Under the pieces are notes generated by a model. That model was not told the DNA's origin, ran no database searches, and saw only the letters and a program-made list of their open reading frames with translations. 64,000 nt of DNA from Anaerolineales bacterium UBA6055 (GTDB taxonomy: Bacteria > Chloroflexota > Anaerolineae > Aggregatilineales > Phototrophicaceae), in the NCBI GenBank assembly GCA_002428985.1, contig DIYL01000059.1:127573-191572 (forward strand), written 5' to 3'. Every line of letters starts with the position of its first letter. Within the stretch, counting starts at the first letter, position 1. The position numbers and the translations under genes are program-made. Positions 5,202 to 64,000 of the stretch are shown here, one piece after another.

Positions 5202-5202
5202 A

Positions 5203-8756: not shown

Positions 8757-9214
8757 CGATCAGGTGTTCCTAATTCAATCAGCACACCGTCTCTAGACCA
8801 ATCAACCATATCTTGTTCGAGGGTATATTCGCCTGTGCCCTCTAATAACACCATACCCGTCCCGCTGATAGCGGCTTGAATATTGATGCCTTGCATAACC
8901 ACAGCCATATCTTCACCAGAAATTACAGCACTTCCATCAAACCGCCGATAAGTATGCGTTGTATTGCCTCGTGTTGTCCGTTCATTATGGAAATAGCGTT
9001 TATTGCTCTCCACCTCAATCGACGTATCGCCACTACGATCAACAATAAATAACATACCCTTGCCCGTAATTGTGATCACCCCACTGCCACTCATTGCAAC
9101 TGTGCCATCACCCTCAGCCGTTATCGTGCCATGCATCGGGATAATATCTTGCGCTGAAAGTACCCCAACCCCGATTATTAGTACAATGACACTCACTACC
9201 CATTTGTGTAACAT
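8753..9214 (-). CDS. Small secreted hypothetical protein (Gly/Thr-rich beta-type repeats)
   Basis: 153-aa ORF with signal peptide VVSVIVLIIGVGVLSAQD. Its stop overlaps the convergent 7497-8756 stop (TTAG at 8753-8756). Confidence 0.5.
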   Translation of the reverse strand: MLHKWVVSVIVLIIGVGVLSAQDIIPMHGTITAEGDGTVAMSGSGVITITGKGMLFIVDRSGDTSIEVESNKRYFHNERTTRGNTTHTYRRFDGSAVISGEDMAVVMQGINIQAAISGTGMVLLEGTGEYTLEQDMVDWSRDGVLIELGTPDR

Positions 9215-9406
9215 CTATGTTCCCATCACGTTAGAATTCCGTTGCAATGATAATACGCACAAGATATTGGCAGGGTGTTGATGAAGTGCAAAAAAGTTGT
9301 AAAATTTGTATGCCATGTCATTTAAATTGCTGTTGATTAAAAGCCTCCAAATCGCCATTTCGATATATAATAGAGTTACACCAACTTAACATCACGACCT
9401 ACACCT

Positions 9407-10435: not shown

Positions 10436-10452
10436 ACAAAAAGCATAAGGTC

Positions 10453-11751: not shown

Positions 11752-11811
11752 GGAGTATACGTATGAATTGTCGAAAGTGTCCTTAGGGACTACTGTTTGG
11801 AGGTATATACC

Positions 11812-16097: not shown

Positions 16098-16274
16098 GCA
16101 ATCATCCCATCTCCCAAATCGTATGGTTTCATAATAACCGGAAACGAATATGATGTCACCTCTCCAAAGAGGGGTGCGCCGAGAATGCATCGTATTTCAT
16201 ATATAAGGCATGCCATCCTCTTCGGTTTTAGTGCCGTGTTATAATAGAGTCAATCATATAGGCGAGGACTAACT

Positions 16275-23892: not shown

Positions 23893-24115
23893 ATCACACC
23901 ACCAATCTGAGTAAAGATGAATCAATTTCAGTGTAACCGAGTTTAATATTATGCATAGATAACAAATGTCATCGTTTGAAACTGCGAACGCAATTTTTCA
24001 GTGTATGCTCAGATTCTTTGATTTCGGCAAAAACTTATACCCTTAGTTTGTTAGCAAATAATTTGTTTGATAAAATCATTTACATTTACTCATGCAATTA
24101 ACGAAAGGCCTAATA

Positions 24116-26239
24116 ATGTCAGGGAATTGGTATAGTGGACTTTATCAGCGCATAACTGATGATACACAGCGTTATATCCTAGAAGGAAAAGACCTTGCGT
24201 TACATTATGCAGATTTATTGCGTAATTATGACAATATTGAAATTATAAGTGATAAAAATGTACCAGATGAACGTAAATTTAATTACGCCAAAATTGACGA
24301 ATTATATAATCGTGTTCGCTCTGATATGATTAAAATAGCAGTATGTGGTGCATTTTCATCTGGCAAGAGTTTCTTAATTAGTGGTCTGCTAAACCATTTA
24401 CAATATGCACCCAAACCGAGCGAATTGAACCCTGCTGAAATTGATGATGATTGGGTTGTTCTCTTACCCGTCGCAGCAGAACATACCACGAATTGTACTG
24501 TGAAGATTTTCGCATTACCTGAAGGAAATGAAACACCATACCTTAAATTACGGTTTAAAGAATCCGATAAATGGCATCGTGTGACGGATGAGAATGCAAC
24601 TATAGAAGATGTTCGTATTGAATTGCTCAAGTATGTAACAACTATTAAAGAGCATCGCGAACTACGAGACCTAATGTTTCGTAATTATAGCACTGTCGAA
24701 GCACATGTGTATCTAAATAATATGGAATTCCCAGCAATTATATATGATTTGCCTGGTTTAGGCGGCATTAACACTGACGGGCGACAAGAAGAATATGACA
24801 AAATCTTTAAGAAACGTGTTAACGAAGCAGATTGTATCATTTATGTAACTAGTGCAATACGTGAATTAACAAATCGCGAATTAGATTTATTGCGTGAACT
24901 TGAAAACAGTATTCACCGTAATCCATTACAACACACATTTTTTATTGTGTCTCAAATTGATCGAGCTCCACGTGATTATCAACGGATTGTTGATATTAAC
25001 AAAAACTATCTGATGAAAAATTTTGAGACAGATGGAGTGCCGAATGAACGATTTATTGGAGATAACTTTATTCCTGTCTCACCTGCACAGGAATCAAAGA
25101 CCCACTATAGACTTGAACATGACGAAATAAAACAAGAGCATGCTGATATTGCAATAAACAAGAGTGGTATGCCAGATTTGAGAGACCGCTTAAGAAATTA
25201 CCTATGGAGAATTTCCGGGCCTAAACACCAAAAAGAAATACTTGAAGAATACATTGAATTTTTATCAGCATTATATGAAGATGCAAATGCGCCTATTACG
25301 GCTTACTCAGAACCCATTGAGGATGGTGAAAAGAAATTGGCAGAAATTCAACAAGAACGCGAATTTCTCAAACAGCAACGTCAAGATATGGAAACCATAT
25401 TAGACTCGACTTATGCGCCACATATTGCAGAAGTCTTTGGAGAAGATTTTTCCAGTCAACTTGCAGACTATCTTGAACATAAGCTTGAGGCTGTTCTCAC
25501 CAAAAAAGATGTTACTAAGCCAGAAGTTCGCAATGAGCTTTTACGATCTCAACGCCGATATGCGGAAGACTGGTTTATGGTAGAAAACGGTTTGCATGAC
25601 AAAATGCAACGTGCCATTGAAGAATATGATGCAGATATGAGTTACCAGTTTGATAAGATGGTCAAAAAACATGAAGAGAAATACAACGTACAATTTTGGA
25701 AGGTGATTAGTAACTTTCAATCAGCAAATTCGATTGTTACTGGATCCGATTCTAAAGCAATCGCTGATCATGCTGTAAATGTTGCAGCTTTATTGTTTGG
25801 TGGGGGCGGTGGTTTGACAGGTCTCAGCGCATGGGGTTTACTAGGTACGACCGCCTTACCCATTGCGATTAGTCTTGCTGTCGTACTGACAGGTGTGAGT
25901 ATTTTTCAGCGAGGTCGCCGCCTCGAGCAAATTGAACTTGCTCGTGAAGAATTTCGCCAAGAAATACGAAAATATGCTACAGAATTTATCAATGCATCAC
26001 GTAAACAGCTCGAAAATACACTCGCGAAAGAGTATAAAGGTATCTGGATGAAAACACTTAACAATTATATTACAAACAATCGTAATGAGGCACAAACACT
26101 CAAAAATCGCATGAAATCAGGTGATTTGAGCATTAATAAAGAGCGCGTTGAAGCATTCGAGCACACACAAGCAAAACTACAACGCCAAATTGAGAATATT
26201 ATGCGTCAGATTGCTTTGATTGATGAGGTTCTACCATAA
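24116..26239 (+). CDS. Bacterial dynamin-like large GTPase with predicted membrane hairpin
   Basis: G1 is GAFSSGKS, G3 is DLPGLGG and the G4-like motif is SQID. Long helical stalk. Gly-rich hydrophobic hairpin LLFGGGGGLTGLSAWGLLGTTALPIAISLAVVLTGVSIF. AAAGG lies 7 nt upstream of the ATG at 24116; the ORF is open from 24092. Confidence 0.7.
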   Translation: MSGNWYSGLYQRITDDTQRYILEGKDLALHYADLLRNYDNIEIISDKNVPDERKFNYAKIDELYNRVRSDMIKIAVCGAFSSGKSFLISGLLNHLQYAPKPSELNPAEIDDDWVVLLPVAAEHTTNCTVKIFALPEGNETPYLKLRFKESDKWHRVTDENATIEDVRIELLKYVTTIKEHRELRDLMFRNYSTVEAHVYLNNMEFPAIIYDLPGLGGINTDGRQEEYDKIFKKRVNEADCIIYVTSAIRELTNRELDLLRELENSIHRNPLQHTFFIVSQIDRAPRDYQRIVDINKNYLMKNFETDGVPNERFIGDNFIPVSPAQESKTHYRLEHDEIKQEHADIAINKSGMPDLRDRLRNYLWRISGPKHQKEILEEYIEFLSALYEDANAPITAYSEPIEDGEKKLAEIQQEREFLKQQRQDMETILDSTYAPHIAEVFGEDFSSQLADYLEHKLEAVLTKKDVTKPEVRNELLRSQRRYAEDWFMVENGLHDKMQRAIEEYDADMSYQFDKMVKKHEEKYNVQFWKVISNFQSANSIVTGSDSKAIADHAVNVAALLFGGGGGLTGLSAWGLLGTTALPIAISLAVVLTGVSIFQRGRRLEQIELAREEFRQEIRKYATEFINASRKQLENTLAKEYKGIWMKTLNNYITNNRNEAQTLKNRMKSGDLSINKERVEAFEHTQAKLQRQIENIMRQIALIDEVLP

Positions 26240-30232: not shown

Positions 30233-31237
30233 ATGACGAAATCTAAGCGCAAAAATGATGAGATATTACAGCCTACCTTTTTACGATTCGTCAAATACGT
30301 TATTCTTGTGTCTATTAGTCTTATCGTACCGTTAGCGTTGATGTTTTTTTGTTCAACTACTGTACTAATGATTAGCTCGCATACATCAGATTGTTTCATG
30401 AGTCCATGTCTTCCCGATTGGGACGACATGAACGATGTGGCGGATTATTATAATTTTTACATCCCATCCTCAGCAAGTAATATCAAGTATGTTAATGATG
30501 ATGCTGATGCATTCTTCGAAATCCATTTTGATCTACCTAAGAATGATTTTGATAGCATTAGGAATCGTACTTGCCAAGGTAACTTCCAAGCAGGATATGA
30601 TCCATCTCAAAGCAAACATCAATTTTCGAGCGAATACCCAACTATACTTATAAAATCCTTTGAGTATCCCTTTTACTCACACTCAGTTGATACACCAACT
30701 CATATCTTAGGTAAACTATGCCGTTGGGATTTAGCGATTCGTGTAGATACATCAAATCCTGATATATATAAAATCACTTATCAACGCTATGAATACACCA
30801 CAACAGCTTGCGAAGTTGAGTGTTTTACAACACAGCGTTTTATCAAACCAATTAATAATTCACTGTTTGCTGTAAGTGGATTGATAGAAAGAAATGATAC
30901 ATTTTACATAGAATTTAATACTTTATGTTTCGACAGCAAAATGTATCAAATTATCAATCCAACCAATCAATATCTACCTGCGTTTACACAAATCAACATC
31001 TCTATTGATGATATGTTCTTCCTACCTACAGGGATCGTAACTAAATATCATCGTTTAGTACGAGATTATATTCTTCTAGATGAGGAAGACCATGATTTAG
31101 CACGTTACCAACAGAGTCCACTTAATGAATTTTGTATCGAACATGATTGGGAGCAAGGTAAACATACCGTAAATGTTGAAATGATTTTGCCAGATGGCAT
31201 GATCGAAAATCACAGTTTTGATTTTTATGTCGATTAA
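30233..31237 (+). CDS. Hypothetical membrane-anchored protein
   Basis: 334-aa ORF with GAGG RBS. N-terminal TM VILVSISLIVPLALMFFCSTTVLMI, then a Cys-containing extracytoplasmic region. The gene is AT-rich. Confidence 0.5.
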   Translation: MTKSKRKNDEILQPTFLRFVKYVILVSISLIVPLALMFFCSTTVLMISSHTSDCFMSPCLPDWDDMNDVADYYNFYIPSSASNIKYVNDDADAFFEIHFDLPKNDFDSIRNRTCQGNFQAGYDPSQSKHQFSSEYPTILIKSFEYPFYSHSVDTPTHILGKLCRWDLAIRVDTSNPDIYKITYQRYEYTTTACEVECFTTQRFIKPINNSLFAVSGLIERNDTFYIEFNTLCFDSKMYQIINPTNQYLPAFTQINISIDDMFFLPTGIVTKYHRLVRDYILLDEEDHDLARYQQSPLNEFCIEHDWEQGKHTVNVEMILPDGMIENHSFDFYVD

Positions 31238-31442: not shown

Positions 31443-31877
31443 ATGGCAACCAATATGCAAGAAGTTGATAGCCTCGTCGCAAATGAGTTTTCAGTTGAGG
31501 TTGATGGTAATGAAGTGCAAGGTGTGTTCAGTGTTGAAGGGTTGACATTGTTTCAACTGAGTGACGACGGAACACGCATGAATCCCGCATTGAAAATCAC
31601 CAAAATGGTACAACGCGATGCCAGCTTACCGTTCAATCAATGGCACAAAGAAACAATGGACAGCCGCGATTCGGATACCCGTCCAACCCGTACATTAGCT
31701 GTTGTTGCAATTGATGATGGTGTCGAGACCCGTCGCTGGACATTAAAAGATGCCTATATCACAAGCATTAGCTATTCTAATTATGACGCCGGCTCATCGG
31801 AAATGATTGAAGAACAATATACCATTGCCTACAACGATATTGAAGAAACTTGGACATTCGCGGATTCTAACGCGTAG
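31443..31877 (+). CDS. Contractile-tail tube-like protein (T4 gp19 / eCIS tube family pattern), orphan
   Basis: 144-aa ORF with GGAG 9 nt upstream. FSVEVDGNEVQGVFSVEGL, LPFNQWHKE and RRWTLKDAYITSISYSNYDAGSSEMIEEQYTIAYNDIE follow the conserved layout of tail-tube proteins as I recall it. Confidence 0.65.
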   Translation: MATNMQEVDSLVANEFSVEVDGNEVQGVFSVEGLTLFQLSDDGTRMNPALKITKMVQRDASLPFNQWHKETMDSRDSDTRPTRTLAVVAIDDGVETRRWTLKDAYITSISYSNYDAGSSEMIEEQYTIAYNDIEETWTFADSNA

Positions 31878-35420: not shown

Positions 35421-36041
35421 TTAATTCGCCCAAACTTTTTTAAATTTCAGACCTGTCAGATTATTCTCTTCGACGATTTGCTTGAAATCATCATTCACAT
35501 ATATCCCACTACGCCTTTGCTCCTTTAATTTAAATATGGTTGTGTTATTCGTACAATCTGGCTCAAACGAATACTTTAGAATTTTTGAAATTGTTCCACT
35601 TTTCAGATACTGGAATTCTGAATTATTATGATCAAGGCAATCAACTATCTCTACAGGATTTATAATATAGTATATTGTCTCTGTATTAATAGTATCTTCG
35701 TCTGTATAATAGACTAGGGGTAGGAATTCAATAGAGCTACCAACTACTTCCTGAATAATCACTTTGGTTTTTGAATCACATACTGGAAATCCAGATAGAC
35801 TTATAAAATTAGGAATATTTTTCTCATTATCAAAATCATATGGGTCAAACCTTACATTCAATGGTTTCCAATCGTCCAATCTAGATGAACCATCTAAAAT
35901 AGGTATGATATCAACCCGCTCGTTTCGAGTTCCCAAATATTTGTAATTCTTAGTATCAACCTGCAAAAGCCACACCCTGGGCACAATTATCTCCTCCGAA
36001 TAATTATTAAAGTCGTGAAGTTTCTTAAATGTTGTGTTCAA
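35421..36041 (-). CDS. Hypothetical protein (immunity-protein-like, DUF1629/Imm-type by loose recollection); start uncertain
   Basis: 206-codon ORF with no ATG codon at all. It opens at a TTG at 36041 without an RBS. Strongly AT-rich. The C-terminal segment reads IYVNDDFKQIVEENNLTGLKFKKV. Confidence 0.4.
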   Translation of the reverse strand: MNTTFKKLHDFNNYSEEIIVPRVWLLQVDTKNYKYLGTRNERVDIIPILDGSSRLDDWKPLNVRFDPYDFDNEKNIPNFISLSGFPVCDSKTKVIIQEVVGSSIEFLPLVYYTDEDTINTETIYYIINPVEIVDCLDHNNSEFQYLKSGTISKILKYSFEPDCTNNTTIFKLKEQRRSGIYVNDDFKQIVEENNLTGLKFKKVWAN

Positions 36042-36220: not shown

Positions 36221-38641
36221 TTATTCATCACCATCAATTGTAAAAGTCCCGAGCACAATCGTATTGTCTTGTGCACCTTCCACATTGGTTAACACATCAT
36301 AGCGTATCGCATCCGGTAACGCATACCATCCCGTCAACACCAGATAATCACCCGCAGGCAACTCACTAATATCCAGTGATAGGGTCTCGGTCCACTGTCC
36401 ATCACGTTCACCATCGCCGATATTATCATCAGCTTGTGCCACCAACCGTCGGTTTTCATCAAGGATATGGATGAATCGAATATCCGTCTGAGCCCGGGGA
36501 TTCTCTAGACGCCACCATAGACGCACAGCCGAATCTGAGGCGAAGTCCTCTGGCATGAAAAACGACGCCAACTCAATCCCATCTTCCAGCCGTATCGGGT
36601 CATAAATTGGGCCATCTGTAAACGATACGATTTCAATATCGCTGATCGTCACATCCCGACACACTAAAATCTCAGCGTTAAAGCGCACAGGGCATGGCGG
36701 ATCAAGTTCAATATGGAAAGTATTATACCCACGACGACCAATTGGTAATGGCACAGACAAGCGTTGTGTGCCATCAATCGTCCATGTATGAACCCGCTCA
36801 TCATTCAACAAAAGATGAATCGTCCGATTATCAGCGGTAAATGTCGCCGTATATTCGAGCCACCCCGGTTGTTCTTTGTAGATATAAGTAGTGTTCTGTC
36901 GTTCATCCGGCGTAACAGTATAAACACTATCCGGTTCAGCTGTCATAATTGGCGTTTCATAAATCGCATATCGATCATCTTCATAAATCGCTGCTCCAAG
37001 ATGAATCAAAGCACGATTCTGCAATGTCTCGAGCATATTCATCTGTGACGCACGTTGCTTATTGATAATCACAATATCGGCGCCTGCATCTGTCAATAAT
37101 GGCGTTTCCATCGTCGACAGCAATTCCAATCGCGCCGGATCAATCGGTGTTTCACGTGCGACTTGTCCAGCAATCAGCGCTTTATTATGAGCAGTCTGTA
37201 GAAAGAGAGCTTCTTTCGCCGACAGCAAATTATCATGGGGAACATTAAATACAGCCCGAATATCAGTACGATCAGCCAGTTCGTGAATCGCTTGAGGTAT
37301 CTGTGCAGTTTGCATCGGGAAAGACTCAAAGAATTGGTAATCACGAAAAATGAGCACCGCAAGCAAAATCACTGCCAGATAACGGACAAATTTTCTGGAA
37401 TTCCGTACCCATCCACTCGTCCAAATGAACGCCATACCATATCCAGCCATCATCGCAAACGCCAATGCGAATAAGAACATAAATCGCCCCGGCGTCCGTG
37501 CAAGCTCAAAAATAGGCAACTCCATAAATAGCGCATACGGTAATGGCACAATCGTCTCATATCCCGCGACACCTATCGTCACAGGTTGGTCGAGTACTTT
37601 GAGTACAGGACCTAACGCGAATATCCATGCGACAACTGCTACCAATAACCACCAGCGCGAGTTGCGATGACTCAACACACCGATCAATGCGAGGAACAGG
37701 CCAATTACGCCAACATAACTCGAGCCTTCAGCAATGTTCGTTCCTAAAACGAGCGATGAGTATTGGGTAATGTCCGACCAAAATGGATTCAAAAATGAGG
37801 GACTAGCCAGCCCTAATAAATCAATACTGAAACGGACAAACCCGCCAGATTCAACATATTGTGACGTCCCTAGCGTATCGCCAACTGTCGGGAAAAGATA
37901 AATCAGCAGCACCACACCACCGACCAACCCGACCGTCACAACCCGCGTGACCCCAATCCAAATGCGATTATACAACTGAGCAAACAGAAATAACGCCATC
38001 AGAGGCAACAATAAATAGATGACCTGTAACGCATGACCACTGGGTGACAAGACAAAGAAGATAACAGATAACCCGAACCAGCGTCGCCGCCCAGTATCGA
38101 TATATTGAAACAAGGCGTACACAAGCAATGGTACACCCCACTGCACCATCAACCCCGCATGACCATCAAACAGATGCCCCTGAAACACCGGAAAAATCAT
38201 AAAGATCAAACCCGCAATCAAAGCAGGCGTATGATGTTCATGTCCAAGGCGATGACGCGCAAGAAAATACATCGCCCATCCATTTAATGCCATCGTTAGC
38301 AATATTGTAATGTTGTACGCCGTAGCAATCGGCATCACGAACGTAAACACCCACATCGGGAAAAACTGTAACGGGTTCGCCCACAACGTCACACCCGAAA
38401 ATCCCTCAGGATACCCTAAGTTCGATTGCCAGAAGATGTCTTCACCAGTTTGGATTGCTGTTTTAAACCACCAGACATGCCGTGCCATCTCATAGGCATC
38501 ACTTGTATCCCCTCCAATAAACGCTGTCGAAAGCGAAGTCACCGCCGGATATGTCACTCCGATAGCAACCAATAAATAGAGCAGATAGACCAATACATGA
38601 TGGCGTGGAATCTGTTTGAGCACAGCAATTTCCTCATTCAC
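36221..38641 (-). CDS. Large polytopic membrane protein, GT-C-like (ArnT/PMT/YfhO-type) glycosyltransferase candidate with C-terminal extracytoplasmic domain
   Basis: 806-aa ORF. About 12 or more hydrophobic helices fill the first ~440 aa, followed by a soluble ~350-aa domain. No diagnostic motif was verified. Confidence 0.55.
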   Translation of the reverse strand: MNEEIAVLKQIPRHHVLVYLLYLLVAIGVTYPAVTSLSTAFIGGDTSDAYEMARHVWWFKTAIQTGEDIFWQSNLGYPEGFSGVTLWANPLQFFPMWVFTFVMPIATAYNITILLTMALNGWAMYFLARHRLGHEHHTPALIAGLIFMIFPVFQGHLFDGHAGLMVQWGVPLLVYALFQYIDTGRRRWFGLSVIFFVLSPSGHALQVIYLLLPLMALFLFAQLYNRIWIGVTRVVTVGLVGGVVLLIYLFPTVGDTLGTSQYVESGGFVRFSIDLLGLASPSFLNPFWSDITQYSSLVLGTNIAEGSSYVGVIGLFLALIGVLSHRNSRWWLLVAVVAWIFALGPVLKVLDQPVTIGVAGYETIVPLPYALFMELPIFELARTPGRFMFLFALAFAMMAGYGMAFIWTSGWVRNSRKFVRYLAVILLAVLIFRDYQFFESFPMQTAQIPQAIHELADRTDIRAVFNVPHDNLLSAKEALFLQTAHNKALIAGQVARETPIDPARLELLSTMETPLLTDAGADIVIINKQRASQMNMLETLQNRALIHLGAAIYEDDRYAIYETPIMTAEPDSVYTVTPDERQNTTYIYKEQPGWLEYTATFTADNRTIHLLLNDERVHTWTIDGTQRLSVPLPIGRRGYNTFHIELDPPCPVRFNAEILVCRDVTISDIEIVSFTDGPIYDPIRLEDGIELASFFMPEDFASDSAVRLWWRLENPRAQTDIRFIHILDENRRLVAQADDNIGDGERDGQWTETLSLDISELPAGDYLVLTGWYALPDAIRYDVLTNVEGAQDNTIVLGTFTIDGDE

Positions 38642-41822: not shown

Positions 41823-44414
41823 CTAATCGTATCGTTCGTAATTATCCTGATTATCTGACGATTCGTATCCGGTATAATCCAGTTCCTCATCATGAGACTG
41901 CGACGTTGAATACTCGGATTGTTCATATCCATCAAAGTCTTGTGGATAGTCATCTTGTATCTCCACAAAATCAGTTTGCTGGTCAAGATGACGGGTAAAC
42001 GACAATTCACCCTTCTTCTCATCAATCACGACCAGATCGCCTTGTACGAAATCACCTTTGAGCAATTGAATACTCAGCGGATTTTCTACATAACGTTGCA
42101 ATGCACGGCGTAGAGGTCGCGCACCAAATTGTGGATCATACCCTTGTTTTGCAATCCAATTACGAGCAGGTTCGGTCAGATGAATCGCCAGACCGGATTC
42201 TTGCAAGCGTTCTGCGAGACCGCGCAATTGCAAGTCAACCATTTGCTCAACCGCTTTCAGTGTCAGTGGTTCGAAAATGATAATCTCATCGATACGATTC
42301 AAGAATTCCGGACGGAAGGTATCACGCATCGCTTTTTCAATTTTCTGATGATCGGCGATAGCTTCTTGGTCACCGCCTTGGATAAACCCAAGTGCGCCAC
42401 CTTTTTTCGCGAATTCTGTCCCGAGGTTACTCGTCATAATCAGTACTGTATTGCGGAAGTCGACGACATGCCCCTGCCCATCAGTCATACGACCATCTTC
42501 AAGAACTTGTAGCAAGGCACTCCACACATCTGAGTGTGCTTTTTCAATCTCATCAAATAAGATGACACGATAAGGACGGCGACGTACAGCTTCTGTCAGT
42601 TGACCACCAGCTTCATATCCGACGTAGCCTGGAGGCGCACCAAACAAACGACTGACAGTATGTTTTTCACGATACTCACTCATATCGACACGCACCAGCG
42701 CATCTTCATCATCAAACATGAACTCAGCTAGCGATTTTGCAAGTTCGGTCTTACCAACACCACTCGACCCAAGGAAGATGAACGACCCAATTGGACGTTT
42801 CGGATCTTTAAGGCCACTACGCGCCCGACGAATCGCATCAGATAATGCCTCGACCGCTTTTTCCTGACCGATTACGCGTTCGTGTAAAACTTCTTCCATG
42901 CGCAGCAATTTCTCGGACTCAGTTTCCAGCATTTGATGCACCGGAATACCTGTCCACTGCTCAACAACCTGTGCAATATCATCGGCTGTCACCAGCTCAT
43001 CAAGTGTATTTTCTTGTCGCCAGATATACCGCTCCCGCTCAAATTCTTCTTCAAGCTGAATCCGTTGCATTTTGCAATCCGCAGCCCGTTCATAATCTCT
43101 CGATAAGCCAGCAGCTTCTTCTTCCATTGCCAACCGATCGACAGCTTCACGCATTTCTTTAAGTCGCGGTGGCATCGAAAATAACGCAACCCGCAATTTT
43201 GCAGCCGCTTCGTCTAACAAATCAATCGCTTTATCAGGGAGTTTACGTTCTGTGAGGTAACGCGCAGACAAACGTGCTGCCGCCTCGATCGCATCATCAG
43301 AAATCGTAACATTATGATGCGCTTCGTATCGATCACGAATCCCATAAAGCATTTCGACGGTATCTTCGACACTAGGTTCTTCGACAAAAATAGGCGCAAA
43401 ACGACGATCTAACGCACTATCTTTTTCGATATATTGGCGATATTCGTCCATCGTGGTCGCACCGACAGTCTGTAACTCACCGCGTGCCAATGCAGGCTTC
43501 ATCATATTACCCGCATCCATCGCGCCAGCGCCGGCACCGGCACCAACAACTTGATGCAACTCATCAATAAAGAGGATAATCTCGCCATCGGAACGTTGTA
43601 CCTCTTCAATAACCGCTTTGAGCCGTTCCTCAAATTCACCACGGAAGCGACTACCAGCCACCATACCACTCAGGTCAAGGCTGAGCACGCGCTTATTCAG
43701 CAAAATATCAGGCACATCAGCCGTCGCAATTTTTTGGGCTAAACCTTCGACAATTGCTGTTTTACCCACACCCGCTTCACCGATGAGAACAGGGTTATTT
43801 TTTGTACGGCGACTCAACACTTGAATCACGCGCAAAATTTCTGCATCGCGCCCAACCACAGGGTCAAGTTTACTTTCCATCGCCATACGCGTTAGGTCGC
43901 GGCTATATTTTTCTAGGGTACGGTAACGGCTTTCTGCCTGTGGGTCAGTCACCCGTTGTCCACCGCGAATATCTTTCACCGCATCGGAGACACGGTCGCG
44001 AGTAATATCATAATCCGCCATCAGCTTGGCTACCGCCGTATTACGCTCCGCTAAAATTGCGAGGAAAATATGCTCAGTGCTGATATATTCGTCGCGTAGT
44101 CGGCTGGCTTCTTCATTAGCACGGTCAATAATGCTCTTCAGGCGCGGGGTGATAAATACCTGATTCGTTCCCTGACCATAAATCGCCGCAGTCCGTGGGC
44201 TTTGGCGCAGAACATCATCAACGCGGGAACGCATACCACTCACATCTATATTGAGGCGTTCCAATACCTGTGGGATGACACCATCAGTCTGTTCAAGCAG
44301 AGCCAGCAAAATATGCTCAGTATCTACTTGATTATGTCCATATCGTTGTAAAATCTCATAGGCACGGGCAGCAGCATCTTGTGCGCGTTCCGTAAATCTG
44401 TCAAATCGTAGCAT
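41823..44414 (-). CDS. clpC: ClpC-class AAA+ ATPase with UVR-like middle domain and unusual acidic/Tyr-rich C-terminal tail
   Basis: Two Clp_N repeats; GEAGVGKT and GSSGVGKT Walker A motifs. The ~80-aa middle domain contains [11 protein letters not shown], which is UVR-like, so it is ClpC-type rather than ClpB-type. It has a ~45-aa tail, [43 protein letters not shown]. Confidence 0.85.
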
Positions 44415-57130: not shown

Positions 57131-58129
57131 ATGAGCGATTCGCCAACATTCTATATTTTTCACGGTGATGATGACATCAGCCTCGAAAACGCCCTAAATA
57201 AAATGCGGGACTCAATGGGTGCAGATGGCGATTTTAACACCTCAGAATTTGAAGGATCAGAGACCACTGTGCCGGACGTCTTAGGCGCAGTCAAGTCGAT
57301 GCCATTTTTAGCTGACAAACGCCTTGTCATTGTCAAAGGACTCATCAGCCATATCACGCGCAAAGGTGCAGGCGAAACCGGCAAAAAAGCCAGCGAACGT
57401 TTACTAGAAGATTTGCCCAATTTACCCGCCCATGCCCGTCTTGTCTTAGTCGAACGCGACACCTTATCCGATAAAAATAAAATCCTGCGTACGACCGAAA
57501 AAATGGGTAACGGATATATCAGTAAATTCGAAAAACCCAAAAACCTCACCACATGGATTATTAAACGGGCGAAATCTGAATATGATGTCGAAATTGTGCC
57601 ACAAGCTGCCCAAGCTATCGCCGATGTCGTCAATGATGATATGCGCCGTGCCGATAGTGAATTGTACAAATTAGTCTGTTACGTCGACGGTGATCATCCC
57701 ATCAACGAGCAAGATGTCGCCACCTTGACCCCATATGTGCCCGAAGCCAATGTATTTGATATGGTTGATGCGCTCGCACAAGGCAACGGTAACACAGCAT
57801 TACGCTTAATTCATCAGGCATTACATGATAACCCACGCGACCCCGGTTTCGGTTTATTCTCATTGATTGTCAGACAATTTCGCTTAATTTTAATGGTGCG
57901 TGAACACCTCAATAGTGGGGGTGGCTCGCAAAATCCAACCATTGCGAAAGCACTTGGTGTTCATCCATTTGTAGCGGGGAAAGTTTCACAGCAATCACGC
58001 GCCTTCAATACAGAACAACTAGATTCTATTCTCAAGCGACTACAAAAATACGATCAAGATATGAAAACCGGACGCATTGATCCACGGCTCGCGCTCGATT
58101 TACTAGTCACCAGCCTCACACGGAACTAG
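57131..58129 (+). CDS. holA: DNA polymerase III delta subunit
   Basis: 332-aa ORF. Has the FYIFHGDD N-terminus, KRLVIVKGL and a C-terminal helical domain of typical size and order. Confidence 0.8.
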   Translation: MSDSPTFYIFHGDDDISLENALNKMRDSMGADGDFNTSEFEGSETTVPDVLGAVKSMPFLADKRLVIVKGLISHITRKGAGETGKKASERLLEDLPNLPAHARLVLVERDTLSDKNKILRTTEKMGNGYISKFEKPKNLTTWIIKRAKSEYDVEIVPQAAQAIADVVNDDMRRADSELYKLVCYVDGDHPINEQDVATLTPYVPEANVFDMVDALAQGNGNTALRLIHQALHDNPRDPGFGLFSLIVRQFRLILMVREHLNSGGGSQNPTIAKALGVHPFVAGKVSQQSRAFNTEQLDSILKRLQKYDQDMKTGRIDPRLALDLLVTSLTRN

Positions 58130-60410
58130 AGAGATCATTTAAGACATCAAGCGCATAATCAACAGCCTCATTGAGTGACAGCATATATCCGGTATCATAT
58201 GCCTGTTGTAAACCACGATCATCTTGGCGTAAGGTATCTAAATGATCGAATGGCAAGATTAAATACTGGGTTTGAAATGGGAAGATACTCTGGCCAGTCG
58301 AATGCTCACGGGCACGCGCCGCACCAAACAGAACCATTGCTGCGTTAATCTGCTTGATCTCGACTAAAAGTACGATACACATCCAAAATAAATCGTGCAT
58401 ATGAAATGGAAATTCCAAGCGCTTACCAAGATCAAAGCTCTCATAAAATAGCTTGATCGCTTTATCATATTGCTGACGCAGTAGGGCAATCTCTGCTAAA
58501 CAACCAATCACAATCGCTTCGCGGCGTACTTCTTTTATCTGACGCGAAATATCAAGACATTCTTCAAATGCTTCAACAGCCTCATCATATGCCTGCGCTT
58601 CAGTCAGCAATAAACCCAGCACATTCAACATATTGGTCAATCCCGACATATCGTCGATGTCACGCATTAATGCTATTGTTTTGCGATTCGCCTGAATCCG
58701 AACATCAAGTGCATTCCCCACATCAATAGCTGGGAAATTTGAACTCCATGCAATACCCCGTCGATCACCTAATGATTGATATGTACTCAACGCCAATGCC
58801 CCATACGCCCGACAAGATTGTTTATCACCACGGAAGTAAGCCAAGTTTCCAGCAGTCAGATACAAATTTGCCCGATACGATGCATCTACATCATCTTGAT
58901 ATTCCATAGCTGCTTGTACCCATCGCCAGCTTTTATCGGCAATCCCTTGATACCACCAGTAATCACGCAACCCGGCAACAAGCCGCACGCCAGTTTCTGG
59001 CTCATATCCCGCCAGTGACCAGCTCATCGCTTTTGTCAAATTGTTATACTCTAAATCTAATTTCCGAAACCACCATGATTGATTTTGACTACGCAAATGT
59101 AACACCGCTTGTTCAACCAACCCCATAAAATATCGCGCATGCCGCGACTGTACTGCACGGTAGTCATCCATTCGCTCCAATTTTTCTCGGGCATAGGCTT
59201 GTAGTGTCATCAGCATGATAAAACGCGGTTCGTTCATTACATCATCAATCTGTAAAATCATACTCTTATCAAGCAAGGCACTCAGGTCATCAAACAAATT
59301 CTCGGTGTCATCATAGATCGCTTGTATAGCCGCTAACGATGCCCCACTTTGAAAAACACTCAACTGTACGAATAGTCGTTGCTCACGTTTAGATAAAAGC
59401 TGATAACTCCAATCAATCGTATTCGTTAAATTGCGGTGCCGTTCGGGTATATTCCGCTGACGACTCGATGGAATTGCCATATGTTGTGCTAGTTTTTCCC
59501 GTAATTGCTTTGGAGAAAACAACCGCACATGAACCGATAATAATTCAATAGCTAATGGTAAACCATCTACCAGCTGACATATTGTTTGAATATCATCACG
59601 ATTCGCGTCCGTGAGTTGAAAAGTGGCGCGTTGTTGCTGTGCCCGTTGCACAAATAACTCGACAGCTTCAGAGGCTATCCCTAAAAACGTTGCATCCAGC
59701 GATAATGGTGGCACATGATAGACATATTCCCCTTCCAGATTAAGGACTTCACGACTGGTTGTCAGGACCGTCAGATGTTTTGATTTGGACAATAAGTCAC
59801 CCACGATAGCACTACCGTCAACGACATGCTCAACATTATCCAATAACAAAAGAATCTGTTTAGATGACAAAAAATGAATAATATGTGCAACAATATCATC
59901 CATCTTGCCAGTTAACCCTAGACTCTCAGCAATCACCGTCGGAATATCATCAACATCAGTAATCTTTGTTAGATCAACAAAGTAAATCCCATCTGTGAAG
60001 ATATTTTGTGCATGATTCGCGATTTCAATACTGAGCCGTGTTTTCCCTGTCCCACCTGTTCCTAGCAATGTAATCAAGCGATGCTGTTGGATAAGCTTCA
60101 GAACCGCATCCAGATGAGACTGTCGTCCGACAAATGATGACAATCTTTGAGGCAAGTTATTGTGGTAAGTATCTACTATTTCAGAGGAGTTTTCACCTGA
60201 TTGATTTAATATCTCAAGCTCAATTGCCTTAGCAACAGCTTCCCGCCGTCCAGACACATGTAATTTAGAGTATATGTGGCGCGCATACCAGCGCACCGTC
60301 TCGACTCCAATCGTGAGCCGTTCAGCAATTTCTCGATTCGATAGTCTTTCTGCCATTAATTCGAGGATTTCAAGTTCACGGTCTTTCAGTGACGTATACA
60401 TTACTGACAT
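58116..60410 (-). CDS. LuxR-HTH / STAND (NB-ARC-like) ATPase / TPR transcriptional regulator
   Basis: N-terminal LuxR HTH (LKDRELEILELMAERLSNREIAERLTIGVETVRWYARHIYSKL), Walker A GTGGTGKTR, LLLDNVEH Walker B and GLPLAIEL (NB-ARC-like), followed by TPR-like helices. It overlaps the holA 3' end by 14 nt (convergent). Confidence 0.85.
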   Translation of the reverse strand: MSVMYTSLKDRELEILELMAERLSNREIAERLTIGVETVRWYARHIYSKLHVSGRREAVAKAIELEILNQSGENSSEIVDTYHNNLPQRLSSFVGRQSHLDAVLKLIQQHRLITLLGTGGTGKTRLSIEIANHAQNIFTDGIYFVDLTKITDVDDIPTVIAESLGLTGKMDDIVAHIIHFLSSKQILLLLDNVEHVVDGSAIVGDLLSKSKHLTVLTTSREVLNLEGEYVYHVPPLSLDATFLGIASEAVELFVQRAQQQRATFQLTDANRDDIQTICQLVDGLPLAIELLSVHVRLFSPKQLREKLAQHMAIPSSRQRNIPERHRNLTNTIDWSYQLLSKREQRLFVQLSVFQSGASLAAIQAIYDDTENLFDDLSALLDKSMILQIDDVMNEPRFIMLMTLQAYAREKLERMDDYRAVQSRHARYFMGLVEQAVLHLRSQNQSWWFRKLDLEYNNLTKAMSWSLAGYEPETGVRLVAGLRDYWWYQGIADKSWRWVQAAMEYQDDVDASYRANLYLTAGNLAYFRGDKQSCRAYGALALSTYQSLGDRRGIAWSSNFPAIDVGNALDVRIQANRKTIALMRDIDDMSGLTNMLNVLGLLLTEAQAYDEAVEAFEECLDISRQIKEVRREAIVIGCLAEIALLRQQYDKAIKLFYESFDLGKRLEFPFHMHDLFWMCIVLLVEIKQINAAMVLFGAARAREHSTGQSIFPFQTQYLILPFDHLDTLRQDDRGLQQAYDTGYMLSLNEAVDYALDVLNDLSSSV

Positions 60411-60560
60411 GCACCCAAGCTATTAATCACTCAATATCATTTATATGTCCACTCATTTCGGGTGGCGACTAAACAACACCTCATATTGCATTATATAACA
60501 GAATCTAACACAACTGTGTTTTTAGCACCTACACAATTAGGTTTATGTTGGCGTTACTTG

Positions 60561-60605
60561 TGTGCTGTGCACTGGGCTTTCGGCTAGTCAAGATTGCACA
60601 GCACA
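60561..60605. promoter_or_regulatory. 11-bp inverted repeat TGTGCTGTGCA-N23-TGCACAGCACA in the divergent intergenic region
   Basis: Read directly. It ends 22 nt upstream of the ATG at 60628. Confidence 0.45.
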
Positions 60606-60627
60606 TACTTGTCCAATTTATAATTAA

Positions 60628-62463
60628 ATGGGAGACATCATGCAGCCACAACGCAAACCCAAAAAACGTCGTCTACAACGTCGTCGCCGTAAACCCAGTG
60701 AAGAATTAGCATCAAACCAAATGCCACCAACCAATGCAGACACAATTCTCAATATGCAACAAACGCTCGGCAATCAGGCTGTCATGCGAATGCTACAAAA
60801 TACTGCTGCACCACCCAAGCCTAAATCCACATTTAACCCATCATCATTTAAAATTCAACGTATGCCATCCGTTAATGATGCGCAGACATTAATCTATGAT
60901 AGTGAACGGGGTAGTAGCCAACAGACAAAATCCGTCATTATCAATATGTTGCGCGAATACCATGAGATTATGAATGGTGGGTACGAAGAAAACTTCCCAT
61001 CTGCCGATGAAATACGCATGGAAAAAGCCGACAAATATACAGCAGATACAATTAGTCATCTACAAGCACTTGCAAAGACAATTTCTATAAAAGCAAATGA
61101 ATTAAAAGCAACCGCAGAAAACCGTGCTGGTGGAAAAACCTTTAAAAAAGACAAGTCAAAACATCGGCAACGTGCCGCAAATATGAATCAGTTTTTGAAC
61201 ATTAACGGTGGGATTGATAAATCTGCTAAAATCTCAAGAATTATTAAAGCCAGACATCATAGTGCATTAATGGCGAAGATGACTGGCGCACAAGATTTGA
61301 ACTTCCTAACAACTGACGATATTGTAGGAGATGTAGAAGACGATGCAATCGCTGGAGGTGTTCACAGTCTCGGCAAAGGTCAGATGCAAACAGAAGACGG
61401 CATCAAAACTGGATATATGAAACAAGATGAATCGTCTCCCGACGACGCTGGCGCTATGACCGACATTAGTCGACAAGATGGCAAGCAGGGGTTACGGGCT
61501 GTTGCCACATATCAAATTAGCGAACTTCTACAAATGGGGATCATTCCCTACACTGCCCTAACTAAAAGCGAAGACGAAGAAGGCAACGTCACCACAGGTC
61601 AATTCATGGAAGAAGCCAAAGGGTTTACTGGTCGTGGTAAAGCCGTCAAGGAAGCATTACCAGATGATAAGCAACAACAAGCCAAAGCACTGCTTGATGA
61701 ACTCAAAAGCGATGACACCACCTCAGACCGTAAAGGCGAAATTGAATCGGAAATCACAGATTTAGTCGGCTTTGCCAACAGTCAAATCGGTATTCAAGAA
61801 GGTAATGACGGCAGAATTTACCAACTCGAACATGCTGCCGCCGACATCGATTGGATGACACCAGTACTCCAAAAAGACCTCAGTACACTACAACTTTTTG
61901 ACATCATTATTGCTCACGCAGATCGCCATGCCGAAAACTATATAGTCGAAACAGGCGAAGACGGTTCAATCACTGGCGCAAAAGGCATCGATAATGATTC
62001 TGTCTGGGGCAAACGAGTTGATAAAGACATGATGGAAGACAAAGGAGATTGGGGCTTCAATAGAGTACTGAAAACACCCGATTTGCCACCCGTTATAGAC
62101 GCTGAAGTCGCGTTACGGGTTGTTTCAACCCACTGGAACTCAATCGAGCGTATTCTAGCACAATACACAATGAAGGGTGACGAAATTGACGCAGCCAGAG
62201 GTCGCTGGGATTATGTACAAGAAGGTGTCAAAGCCATGATTATGGGTAACAAACTCGCCACTATGACCCTAGATAATCATCAAGAAATGATGATGTATGC
62301 CCGGCTCTATACAGCGATCGGTGAAAATCCGCCACAGGGCATGTGGAATCGCCAAATGATGACGTGGGGTGAAGAGACTGAAGACCTCATGAGTGAGGGC
62401 AGTTATATCTCCGAGATCGAAAATAATTACAACAGAAAAGTTAACCCAGACGATTATGCATAA
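60628..62463 (+). CDS. Effector-like protein: N-terminal GNxAVxRMLQ leader plus C-terminal type-II-PI4-kinase-like (PI3/PI4-kinase superfamily) motifs
   Basis: Basic N-terminus, then MQQTLGNQAVMRMLQN. Downstream come LRAVATYQISELLQMGIIPYT, LFDIIIAHADRHAENYIVE and AKGIDND. An alternative ATG at 60640 has GGGAGA 4 nt upstream. Confidence 0.6.
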   Translation: MGDIMQPQRKPKKRRLQRRRRKPSEELASNQMPPTNADTILNMQQTLGNQAVMRMLQNTAAPPKPKSTFNPSSFKIQRMPSVNDAQTLIYDSERGSSQQTKSVIINMLREYHEIMNGGYEENFPSADEIRMEKADKYTADTISHLQALAKTISIKANELKATAENRAGGKTFKKDKSKHRQRAANMNQFLNINGGIDKSAKISRIIKARHHSALMAKMTGAQDLNFLTTDDIVGDVEDDAIAGGVHSLGKGQMQTEDGIKTGYMKQDESSPDDAGAMTDISRQDGKQGLRAVATYQISELLQMGIIPYTALTKSEDEEGNVTTGQFMEEAKGFTGRGKAVKEALPDDKQQQAKALLDELKSDDTTSDRKGEIESEITDLVGFANSQIGIQEGNDGRIYQLEHAAADIDWMTPVLQKDLSTLQLFDIIIAHADRHAENYIVETGEDGSITGAKGIDNDSVWGKRVDKDMMEDKGDWGFNRVLKTPDLPPVIDAEVALRVVSTHWNSIERILAQYTMKGDEIDAARGRWDYVQEGVKAMIMGNKLATMTLDNHQEMMMYARLYTAIGENPPQGMWNRQMMTWGEETEDLMSEGSYISEIENNYNRKVNPDDYA

Positions 62464-62476
62464 ATCATCAATAATA

Positions 62477-64000
62477 TTATTGTGATATCTGTTGCTCTGG
62501 TTCCCTAAATGCCAATGTATCAAGTAGAAAATCACTAGCATCATCCAGTGACATCGCATAACCAACGGCATAGGCTTCTTCAAATGTCACATCAGATGCC
62601 CTCAAGTGATCAAGATGAGCACCAAATTCTCGGACATATTGGAGTTGGTTAGGATACACCTTCTGACCACTCCGCTGTTCACGTGCTTGTGCTGCACCAT
62701 ACAACACCATCGCCGTATTAAACTCTTCCAAAGCCACCATCAACCAAACAGATGTCCAAACCAGATGATGCAATTCAAACCCAAAGTTTATATCCCGCCC
62801 TTTTCTTATAGATTCAGCGATTCGTTGGGCAGCAACATCATATCGTCCTTGACGAAATGCGAGATCACCCAGATTGCTCAGCACAGAATTTTGCTGACGG
62901 GCATTACCACCATCACCTGCAATCCGATAACCCTCAAGATAATGTTCTTCGGCTTTCTCATACATACCAACATCCATGTACAACAATGCAAACGAGTTAT
63001 GTTTGAGTGATATACCGATAGTATCATTCACCTGCTCTAATAATTTCAGGGATTCTTCGTAATTTTTGATGGTCTGTTCTAGTGATTGAACCCGCCCTAA
63101 TGTCGGCAACAAATAACACCACGCAATCCCATAATCATCCTCAAGAGCCGTATACAAAGCCAATGCCGACCGTCCCCACCGCATTGACGTCTCAGCATCT
63201 TGCCGAAAGTACGAAATAAACGCACCAGCCAACAAAAACTCAGCCCGTGTCGCATCAGAGACATCATTTAACTGATGTTCACCCCGTTCAAACCAGTGCC
63301 AGCCTTCACCATGTAACCCCTGATACCACCAATAATTACGTAAAGCAGCGATCATTTGGATACCAGGTTCCACAAACTGTCCATCTAATGCCCATGTCAA
63401 TACCTGCCGGATATTACCCTGTTCAATACCAAGGCGGGTAAACCAATATTCTTGCTTCGAAGCCATCAATTCCGGCGCAGCTTGTTGTGTCAAATGATGA
63501 TAGAACCCAACATAACGCTGTTGAATATCGTATCGACGATTAGCTTCATTTAACTGATTACGACCAAATGCTTTCAGCGTTTCCAGCATATAAAAACGGG
63601 GTTCTTCAAGTTGATCCTCATATTGCCGGATCATACTCTTATCAATTAACACCAGCAACAAGTCAAATAAATCAGTTTCGAGGTCATCGTCCACAATCGC
63701 TTCAATCGCATCAAGTGGTGCACCATCATTGAAAATTGATAAACACAAGAATAATTGTCGCTCCTCATCCGACAACAGTTGATAACTCCAATCAATCGTT
63801 TGATACAGTGTGCGGTGTCGATTAGGAATATCGAGTGCCCGATTTGCAAAACCAGTTATTCGTTTATCCATCCGCTTGAGGAGTGCGGAAGGCGACAAAA
63901 GCTTGATATGCGCGGCAACCAATTCAATCGCTAACGGTAACCCATCAAGCTGTTCACAAATGAGCAAAATATCATCAATATTATTATCGGTAACCTCAAA
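62477..64000 (-). CDS. LuxR-HTH / STAND ATPase / TPR regulator paralog (5' end beyond the window)
   Basis: The frame is open to the window edge. GLPLAIELVAAH and the whole TPR region align with residues ~275-764 of the 58116-60410 protein. Confidence 0.8.
   Translation of the reverse strand, partial: FEVTDNNIDDILLICEQLDGLPLAIELVAAHIKLLSPSALLKRMDKRITGFANRALDIPNRHRTLYQTIDWSYQLLSDEERQLFLCLSIFNDGAPLDAIEAIVDDDLETDLFDLLLVLIDKSMIRQYEDQLEEPRFYMLETLKAFGRNQLNEANRRYDIQQRYVGFYHHLTQQAAPELMASKQEYWFTRLGIEQGNIRQVLTWALDGQFVEPGIQMIAALRNYWWYQGLHGEGWHWFERGEHQLNDVSDATRAEFLLAGAFISYFRQDAETSMRWGRSALALYTALEDDYGIAWCYLLPTLGRVQSLEQTIKNYEESLKLLEQVNDTIGISLKHNSFALLYMDVGMYEKAEEHYLEGYRIAGDGGNARQQNSVLSNLGDLAFRQGRYDVAAQRIAESIRKGRDINFGFELHHLVWTSVWLMVALEEFNTAMVLYGAAQAREQRSGQKVYPNQLQYVREFGAHLDHLRASDVTFEEAYAVGYAMSLDDASDFLLDTLAFREPEQQISQ

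Follow-up and report, generated by a model that had tools for sequence, protein, structure and literature searches.

A duplicated STAND regulator/kinase-like gene pair in an Anaerolineales genome and its possible relation to contractile injection system cargo

What would a gene with kinase motifs do next to large signal-sensing regulators, and how would its product be delivered and kept in check? The question is raised by a stretch of 64,000 nucleotides from the Anaerolineales bacterium UBA6055 (Chloroflexota; assembly GCA_002428985.1, contig DIYL01000059.1, positions 127,573 to 191,572 of the forward strand), which is called the window throughout. Near its end lies a kinase-like gene, here termed KL1, beside genes for LuxR-type regulators of the STAND class (signal transduction ATPases with numerous domains); the second copy of the kinase-like gene is termed KL2, and the paired regulators are STAND1 and STAND2. 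An earlier note, made from the letters of the sequence, had read KL1 as a toxic or host-directed enzyme with a secretion-tag-like leader under dedicated control. The reading preferred here is that KL1 would be a leader-tagged kinase toxin of the kind carried as cargo by contractile injection systems (CIS), with its expression gated by a dedicated STAND protein. A probability of about 0.5 is assigned to this reading as a whole.

Gene layout and the kinase-like domain

The three open reading frames (ORFs) described in the earlier note are all present. A public contig (L001), which overlaps the window and extends past its end, supplied the full-length STAND2 and KL2.

58116-60410, minus strand: STAND1, ORF of 764 aa; the probable called start at 60401 gives 761 aa
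60640-62463, plus strand: KL1, putative kinase-like effector gene, 607 aa; an alternative start at 60628 gives 611 aa
62477-64000, minus strand: STAND2, C-terminal two thirds (winged-helix/tetratricopeptide repeat, TPR); ORF 62477-63967, 496 aa, is cut by the window end
to about 64810, minus strand: STAND2, whole gene, 777 aa (L001 gene table)
about 65050-66969, outside the window, divergent from STAND2: KL2 (P0004), 639 aa (L001 gene table)

In public gene calls KL1 starts at 60640, just 3' of a GGGAGA Shine-Dalgarno sequence, and the called protein (P0001, 607 aa) is 100% identical; residue numbers below follow the 611-aa frame. The gene order on L001 is S1, DUF6391, holA, STAND1 (minus) and KL1 (plus), STAND2 (minus) and KL2 (plus), and biotin carboxyl carrier/carboxylase. 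This is a divergent STAND/kinase-like pair that has been duplicated in tandem, and not one effector gene bracketed by two regulators as the earlier note had pictured it, the partner of STAND2 lying past the window end. The KL2 and KL1 proteins share 49% identity. Housekeeping genes (S1, holA, biotin carboxylase) surround KL1, and no defence island is found there. On a further contig, a kinase-like gene of 361 aa (P0006, L009:225-1310) has neither leader nor helical domain despite 224 nt of contig upstream; its position before a biotin carboxyl carrier gene is that of KL2 and of the L003 gene, and it may be a truncated copy or the result of an assembly break.

Within KL1, the following parts are distinguished.

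60628-60867, plus strand: leader, residues 1-80, with a K/R-rich disordered start, the motif ILNMQQTLGNQAVMRMLQ and an IQRMP linker
60745-60798, plus strand: leader motif ILNMQQTLGNQAVMRMLQ, residues 40-57, conserved in the close-family alignment
residues 76-80, plus strand: linker motif IQRMP, conserved in the close-family alignment
60868-61287, plus strand: helical domain, residues ~81-220, all-helical in the model (predicted local distance difference test, pLDDT, 80-90), part of the conserved module
61300-62460, plus strand: predicted PI3/PI4-kinase-like catalytic domain, residues 225-611 (AlphaFold2 model, Foldseek, conserved residues)
61420-61422, plus strand: K265, presumed ATP-binding Lys (conservation and position in the model)
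61915-61938, plus strand: catalytic loop H430-N437, HADRHAEN (conservation, alignment to PI4KIIalpha)
61987-61998, plus strand: IDND, residues 454-457, predicted metal-binding (conservation, alignment to PI4KIIalpha)

The three kinase motifs noticed earlier in the C-terminal half are confirmed, well above chance. HADRHxEN and GIDNDS are invariant in 11 close homologues; across 133 distant relatives no substitution is seen at D432, R433, N437, D455 or R526, and conservation reaches at least 90% at K265, R290, I454 and D457. The DRHxxN and IDN residues are thus retained in homologues, and the family consensus reads GQxDRHxGN...GVKGIDND. K265, which the model places in the third N-lobe strand, would be the ATP-binding Lys. 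With 133 sequences as input, AlphaFold2 modelled residues 225-611 at a pLDDT of 95.6 and a predicted template modelling score of 0.93, replacing a model from 11 sequences that had reached a pLDDT of only 54 over the kinase half. In the PDB, the 12 best Foldseek matches of the newer model are all type II phosphatidylinositol 4-kinases (PI4KIIalpha/beta; 4wtv, 5i0n, 4hnd and others; E 2e-6 to 3e-5, probability 1.0), followed by Fam20C/A, H. pylori CtkA (E=1.6e-3), Legionella MavQ (E=3.9e-3) and CotH.

The correspondence to type II PI4-kinases, which had been proposed motif by motif, is reproduced by aligning the family profile with PI4KIIalpha (4hnd_A, E=0.17). DRHxGN pairs with DRGNDN and IDND with IDNG; the profile side of the alignment includes LQllDaIiGqaDRHaGNyiv...VkGIDNDdaFG, and the PI4KIIalpha side ends VAAIDNGLAFP. 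Furthermore, PF00454 (PI3_PI4_kinase) is matched by 28 of 71 relatives (best E=5.6e-8), individual examples scoring 16.7-26.1 bits, below the 27.1-bit cutoff. Together with the Foldseek result, these matches bear out the description of the C-terminal half as PI3/PI4-kinase-like. KL1 alone has no significant NCBIfam or PDB sequence match, the best being a weak one to SCO1664/TIGR03843 (E=0.014), and PDB sequence-profile matches to a BAR protein and ApoE were set aside as coiled-coil noise. Judged by the model, KL1 almost certainly has a kinase-like fold with an intact active site. Phosphotransfer to phosphatidylinositol is a relation predicted from the fold only, and fold likeness does not define a substrate.

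In BFVD, the best matches are tailed-phage proteins annotated with a PI3K/PI4K catalytic domain, one of them fused to a head-morphogenesis domain; haloarchaeal-virus proteins and Nudix fusions are also found. These matches to the model suggest virion-delivered kinase-like proteins. Residues 397-467 of KL1 match the PADLOC candidate defence protein PDC-M03A locally (E=8.5e-6), in the catalytic-loop region alone. As this local match is the only one, the locus was not taken for a known PADLOC defence system.

Leader, family and injection systems

A word-indexed protein search with KL1 returned only 11 relatives. The exhaustive profile search yields at least 1518 clusters (50% identity) at E<=1e-3, with 447 at E<=1e-10, from at least six phyla; the nearest kinase-like relatives belong to metagenome-assembled genomes (MAGs) of Anaerolineaceae and Aggregatilineales. 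The shared core covers profile positions ~250-585 and is mostly C-terminal in proteins of 600-800 aa. An N-terminal PF13699 eCIS_core domain (formerly DUF4157) is present in 19 of 71 scanned members (best E=5.4e-31), and fusions of eCIS_core to the kinase module occur in 8 fetched loci. DUF4157 marks toxins associated with extracellular CIS (eCIS), where it is N-terminal and the toxin domain C-terminal (PMC8213781).

Three N-terminal architectures are found on one kinase module. In the KL1 type, a leader with a GN.AV motif stands alone; in the second type (P0067, P0078, the L022 protein and others), the HExxH of eCIS_core comes ~100 residues behind the same leader; the third has a very K/R-rich N-terminus with neither GN.AV leader nor eCIS_core. 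In P0124, a leader of the KL1 type is joined to a different subfamily of the kinase module, which, together with the mixed N-termini, indicates that parts have been shuffled as in polymorphic toxins.

Gene neighbourhoods were tabulated for 86 fetched loci with locally built hidden Markov models, key cases being checked with Pfam. Among distant members, eCIS_core is the sole recurrent neighbour family (6 of 66 neighbouring ORFs). In Planctomycetota and Bacillota, family members are found in CIS operons, with baseplate genes on one side and AAA+ loader genes on the other. An Isosphaeraceae MAG (L018) has Baseplate_J, Tail_P2_I, two unknowns (one with an AAA-like ORF), an eCIS_core-kinase fusion and a further eCIS_core protein; an Acetatifactor MAG (L036) has Baseplate_J, Tail_P2_I, a 680-aa AAA+ ATPase, two kinase-like genes and an AAA+ ATPase. 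L035, L024 and L085/86 are similar CIS-operon settings. On the grounds of the eCIS_core fusions and these neighbourhoods, the kinase-like family behaves as CIS cargo, and it is very probably such cargo. Neither a PI3/PI4-kinase-like nor any other kinase-like CIS cargo was found in the literature and supplements, whose coverage was incomplete.

In a Bacteroidota MAG (L017), a kinase-like gene with a K/R-rich N-terminus (8858-10942) lies directly 3' of a gene for a TcA-like ABC-toxin subunit (56-8803; 2916 aa, TcA_TcB_BD E=8.7e-91), which suggests that the kinase module is also used with Tc toxin complexes.

Directly 3' of the kinase-like gene and on the same strand, about ten loci from Chloroflexota, Bacteroidota, Cyanobacteria and metagenomes carry a conserved ORF of ~190 aa, with pairwise identities of 32-40% and E-values down to 4e-51.

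L014:11695-12264, ORF of ~190 aa
L015:9008-9577, ORF of ~190 aa
L020:10973-11548, ORF of ~190 aa
L021:10685-11245, ORF of ~190 aa
L022:10559-11125, ORF of ~190 aa
L060, L064, L076, L078 and L082, further copies

The ORF has no match in Pfam, NCBIfam or PADLOC, and it is a candidate immunity protein. A tblastn search found no homologue of it in the window.

The leader of KL1 shows the K/R-rich start and the MQQTLGNQAVMRMLQN stretch described earlier. Its motif, with the consensus L.LQ...GN.AV, is kept throughout the close family, and residues 1-77 are disordered in AlphaFold (pLDDT <40). No other N-terminus among the 51 window ORFs of 150 aa or more is as hydrophilic: that of KL1 has a Kyte-Doolittle sum of -76.7 over its first 50 residues, compared with a window mean of -3.7 (sd 32.8). 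Over residues 6-21 the net charge is +10, and 15 of the 16 residues are disorder-promoting. Hydrophilicity, positive charge and disorder characterise the published eCIS signals; the KL1 leader fits these properties, with a charge stronger than the "slightly positive" given there (PMC11297309). In P0067, P0078 and the L022 protein, the DUF4157 HExxH is preceded by the same GN.AV leader, which, among 726 ORFs of the loci fetched at that stage, is carried only by proteins of the kinase-like family. In AlgoCIS, the disordered region before DUF4157 is the loading sequence, DUF4157 itself being dispensable for loading, and cargo is loaded by an AAA+ protein (bioRxiv 10.64898/2026.05.27.728243). The leader of KL1 (~75 residues) may accordingly be named a putative loading or targeting sequence, and the earlier description of it as secretion-tag-like holds, both by its motif and by its physico-chemistry.

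The helical domain behind the leader is covered by profile matches in many relatives, and Foldseek gave only non-significant helical-bundle matches for it. Elsewhere in the window, the ORF at 14400-16190 (minus strand; 596 aa, called gene 525 aa starting MQRALNDP) resembles the leader in a GNHFVNRLIQR motif close to the N-terminus and shows a weak signature of NlpC/P60 type (TIGR02594, E=0.01; NWCAWF...HTTLVE...TIEGNSGN). It is not claimed as a second effector: a homologue search found itself alone, and hhalign to the family gave E=0.12, over the leader only.

The regulators and their shared promoter regions

STAND1 consists of an N-terminal LuxR/GerE helix-turn-helix (HTH), an NB-ARC NTPase with the P-loop GTGGTGKT and C-terminal TPRs (Pfam: GerE E=2.8e-12, NB-ARC E=8e-13, TPR_12 E=2.9e-9). 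NCBIfam gives partial matches to HaaT, a regulator of a gene cluster for ribosomally synthesised and post-translationally modified peptides, and to AfsR and MalT. The full-length STAND2 on L001 has the same GerE/NB-ARC/TPR build; its part inside the window shows TPR alone, the LuxR HTH being encoded beyond base 64000. By their predicted domains, both proteins have the architecture of STAND (NB-ARC) regulators, namely an HTH, an NB-ARC module with P-loop and a repeat sensor. These domains, and 41% identity over 757 aa (BLASTP), agree with the earlier description of the flanking genes as paralogous LuxR-HTH/NB-ARC-like/TPR regulators. The earlier note knew of no described system with this composition. 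A precedent does exist in the cargo toxins of CIS: GerE/LuxR regulators are the commonest regulators beside eCIS, GerE regulators flanking 25.8% of eCIS loci (PMC8213781).

A full-length STAND homologue beside or near the kinase-like gene is confined to the closest clade, which comprises both copies here, the P0003 lineage with its divergent STAND/kinase-like pair (L003, L004, L038, L039) and L008, where the STAND gene is not adjacent and lies 3.4 kb away. Among the fetched loci no STAND gene is found near distant members, except for an adenylate-cyclase/NB-ARC protein near the L016 gene. The conserved synteny anticipated in the earlier note is therefore real for the closest clade (this genome twice, the P0003 lineage and L008) and does not extend to a clade at 40% identity or to distant members. 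The L016 protein, from an Acidimicrobiia MAG, is an 884-aa fusion of adenylate/guanylate cyclase and NB-ARC STAND (6808-9462, minus strand) and is encoded at a distance of 3.7 kb from an eCIS_core-kinase fusion; it represents a further STAND protein near a member of the kinase-like family, with another output domain.

Three elements lie between STAND1 and KL1.

60449-60469, unstranded: IR1, inverted heptamer repeat CCACTCA-N4-GGGTGG-CGAC, candidate operator for a GerE-type HTH dimer
60489-60533, unstranded: putative promoter/operator block, of which 36 nt (60489-60524) are identical in both paralogous intergenic regions, then ACCTACA
60507-60520: inverted repeat AACACA-AC-TGTGTT within the 36-bp block

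Dimers of the GerE/NarL type bind heptamer inverted repeats. IR1 lies 39-59 nt upstream of the STAND1 start, and its general form, CCACYCA-N3/4-TGRGTGG-YGAC, matches once in the 64-kb window compared with 0 matches in 100 shuffles. Three genomes have it, in five promoter regions in all, among them those of STAND2/KL2 and L003/L004; it occurs twice in L008, also 5' of the non-adjacent STAND gene there. A compensatory change (CCACCCA/TGGGTGG versus CCACTCA/TGAGTGG) keeps the palindrome. As an RNA element, IR1 has no Rfam match and an unexceptional fold (z=-0.45), so that a DNA operator is preferred.

The 36-bp block is identical between the two copies while the flanking proteins have diverged to 41-49% identity. 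Its inverted repeat AACACA-AC-TGTGTT was found only in the two paralogous intergenic regions when the window and 37 loci were searched, and L003 holds a diverged version of the block. Within the block, TATAAT at 60495-60490 on the minus strand may be a promoter hexamer. Both IR1 and the block sit in the promoter regions shared by STAND and kinase-like genes and are candidate STAND sites. A link between regulator and effector gene is supported by the retention of the divergent pair in both copies and the P0003 lineage, by the conservation of IR1 and by the identical 36-bp block, and STAND1 probably regulates KL1.

Readings of the locus and known systems

According to the preferred reading, the TPR domain of the STAND protein would sense a signal, whereupon the NB-ARC module would switch and oligomerise and the HTH would bind IR1 and the conserved block between the two divergent genes. 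Only after this binding would the kinase-like toxin be made. By means of its leader it would then be packed into a particle of CIS type, whose genes would lie at another place in the genome, and be delivered into a target cell, where the C-terminal kinase domain would be the toxic activity and phosphorylate a substrate. As to its origin, in most relatives the kinase module lies behind eCIS_core, inside a CIS operon or ahead of the ~190-aa ORF; the lineage of KL1 may have lost the eCIS_core domain and the ~190-aa partner and gained a head-to-head STAND gene, the pair then being duplicated in tandem.

Several observations weigh against this reading. No CIS sheath, baseplate or AAA+ loader gene is present in the window or in the 10 kb beyond it, and neither a CIS nor an eCIS_core gene was found in the roughly 60 kb before and the 10 kb after KL1. 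KL1 itself has no PF13699 eCIS_core domain or HExxH, nor do its neighbours. Genes of the 40%-identity clade (L005, L010, L011, L013) have no STAND, partner or CIS neighbours and resemble stand-alone chromosomal genes among ordinary metabolic genes. Outside the kinase-like family, likeness to the leader is at motif level only, and a leader-only profile search of databases returned just fragments of <150 aa. IR1 always lies about 40-100 nt from the STAND start codon, that is, nearest the regulator; given this constant position, it may be an autoregulatory site that controls the regulator alone rather than switching KL1. A sigma-70 promoter scan of the region is at chance level. As for the fold, KL1 alone matches no Pfam family at threshold, PF00454 being absent even at E<=1, and the Foldseek TM-scores to PI4KII are only 0.35-0.44; these modest scores mark the domain as a divergent member of the protein-kinase-like superfamily. 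Of the profile and structure comparison suggested in the earlier note, a PF00454 match of KL1 itself did not materialise, while relatives do match and the model is closest to PI4KII. A profile and structure match, the kinase motifs in homologues and STAND synteny, whose absence the earlier note would have counted against its proposal, were each found. On the CIS question in particular, chances are about even that KL1, with the leader it encodes, would be exported by such a system.

The lack of CIS genes nearby also speaks for KL1 as a non-exported intracellular toxin, with the STAND protein sensing a phage, stress or developmental cue and the outcome being arrest or death of the producer cell. 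Such an abortive-infection or programmed-death module in a filamentous bacterium, with the leader as a leftover or an autoinhibitory tail, is rather unlikely. The KL1 clade has no immunity partner, unlike the distant relatives, which fits tight transcriptional gating; STAND NTPases are typical sensors of conflict systems, and in Streptomyces cytoplasmic CIS and their effectors mediate cell death. The weak local PDC-M03A match (E=8.5e-6, residues 397-467) points the same way but spans the catalytic loop alone. Moreover, the leader sequence is conserved across the close clade, which argues that it is functional, the STAND output is ordinary DNA binding with no effector domain, and the setting among S1, holA and biotin carboxylase is not that of a defence island. 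The missing immunity gene would find another explanation in a substrate absent from bacteria, with KL1 a phosphoinositide kinase effector directed at protist or animal cells, like Legionella MavQ, LepB and LegA5. This is a question of the substrate, partly compatible with the leader-tagged toxin model. The best structural matches are eukaryotic type II PI4-kinases, with MavQ also among them (E=3.9e-3), and eCIS often target eukaryotes (PMC8213781). However, TM-scores of 0.35-0.44 and 12% identity do not define a substrate, the protein kinases Fam20 and CtkA score nearly equal, the candidate immunity gene is present in about ten loci from Chloroflexota, Bacteroidota, Cyanobacteria and metagenomes, and tailed-phage proteins share the fold, so that some of the superfamily, at least, should have bacterial targets. 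The candidate immunity gene and the phage-borne homologues point at least as much to bacterial as to host targets, and a eukaryote-directed role is considered distinctly unlikely.

An altogether different function is suggested by the weak TIGR03843 (SCO1664) match (E=0.014), by the partial matches of the STAND protein to HaaT and AfsR and by the ordinary metabolic surroundings of the 40%-identity clade: KL1 might be a non-toxic cellular kinase of the SCO1664 type, acting on a small molecule, an antibiotic or an envelope lipid under a LuxR-family pathway regulator. Yet fusions to eCIS_core and positions inside CIS operons recur in the family, polymorphic N-termini are joined to one C-terminal module, no biosynthetic genes lie beside the STAND/KL1 pair, and a disordered basic leader would be left without a role. 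A metabolic function of this kind is very improbable.

Should the preferred reading, a leader-tagged kinase toxin gated by its STAND partner, be extended to the whole family, the PI4KII-like module would represent a widespread, uncharacterised class of injected kinase toxins with its own ~190-aa immunity family. In the present lineage, immunity would have been replaced by the duplicated LuxR-STAND regulator, which would keep the toxin silent until a signal arrives and would make the pair a self-contained sense-and-fire module for a CIS, or for self-directed cell death in a filament. This extension is speculative and rather doubtful; if it is true, identifying the kinase substrate would uncover a new way in which phosphorylation can intoxicate a cell. 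Work is under way to turn CIS into protein-delivery tools, and new toxins can be drawn from their natural cargo, of which only a few activities are known. The large family, the intact active site and the high-confidence model make the toxin hypothesis directly testable, and the duplicated STAND gene with its operator-like elements offers a handle on the signal that triggers deployment of an injected toxin, a question that is open for nearly all eCIS.

Further genes of the window are recorded here for completeness. An orphan, divergent tube-family gene (31443-31877, plus strand; Phage_T4_gp19 38.9 bits, TIGR02241 E=9e-9, CIS1_fam E=1.5e-5) lies 29 kb from KL1 and counts in favour of the preferred reading; it is the only CIS-like gene, and no sheath or baseplate genes are nearby. 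Upstream of it, 30233-31237 (plus strand) encodes 334 aa with an apparent N-terminal membrane segment and no Pfam/NCBIfam match. An Imm11 immunity-family gene (35421-36041, minus strand, E=1.5e-15) is located directly 3' of 36221-38641 (minus strand), whose 806-aa product has many hydrophobic segments and no Pfam match; the pair may be a polymorphic-toxin immunity remnant, or the larger gene an unrelated membrane protein. The window also contains at least four Uma2-family genes (putative restriction endonuclease, PF05685; 16275-16829, 28699-29091, 52501-53091, 53208-53819), two Clp-type AAA+ genes (11797-14313, 41823-44414), a dynamin-family GTPase (24092-26239) and a DUF6745 protein (10453-11538). 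Over its full length the window yielded neither a tRNA nor an Rfam RNA.

Among known systems, KL1 is nearest in function to eCIS-associated toxins (EATs) and in fold to type II PI4-kinases. Since it lacks the location and DUF4157 features of EATs and stays below the PF00454 threshold, it is called a divergent relative that would work like these families. With EATs such as the AlgoCIS cargo Cgo1/Cgo2 it shares the modular build of a basic disordered leader and a C-terminal, here putative, toxin domain (PMC8213781, PMC11297309, PMC8894135, bioRxiv 10.64898/2026.05.27.728243). In relatives of KL1, and not in KL1 itself, eCIS_core separates leader and kinase; their genes close CIS operons on the 3' side, near AAA+ loader genes, and have further eCIS_core genes arrayed around them. 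LuxR/GerE regulators are common beside EAT loci. In contrast, KL1 has no eCIS_core and no CIS operon nearby, a dedicated STAND regulator and a kinase-like domain in the place of the toxin. Type II PI4-kinases resemble KL1 in fold, in the D-R-x-x-x-N loop, in I-D-N-(G/D) and in the Lys of the third N-lobe strand; KL1 differs from them in its low identity (~12%), TM-scores of 0.35-0.44, bacterial context, and extra helical domain and leader.

The concept of a delivered or toxic atypical kinase is shared with Legionella MavQ (a PI 3-kinase), H. pylori CtkA and the HipA-type toxin kinases. HipA-type kinases are antibacterial toxin kinases with a cognate neutralising protein. MavQ, CtkA and HipA use other secretion routes (type IV or none), show no detectable sequence relation to KL1 and have known substrates of their own. 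Phage proteins with a PI3K/PI4K domain (A0A6J5MJB0, A0A6J5RTG7, HSTV-2 L7TJZ0) have the same fold (E 1e-6 to 2e-4) and are likely injected by a contractile or tailed particle; the likeness is at fold level only, and they include head-morphogenesis and Nudix fusions. To our knowledge, none of them has been characterised.

On the regulatory side, STAND1 resembles MalT/LAL proteins and AfsR (SARP-NB-ARC-TPR) in joining a DNA-binding domain to an NB-ARC/AAA switch and a TPR sensor. The LuxR HTH is C-terminal in MalT/LAL proteins and N-terminal in STAND1, and AfsR has a SARP domain instead. Unlike MalT and AfsR, STAND1 has a single toxin gene as its apparent target. By analogy with these regulators, ligand-triggered oligomerisation and promoter activation would be expected of STAND1.

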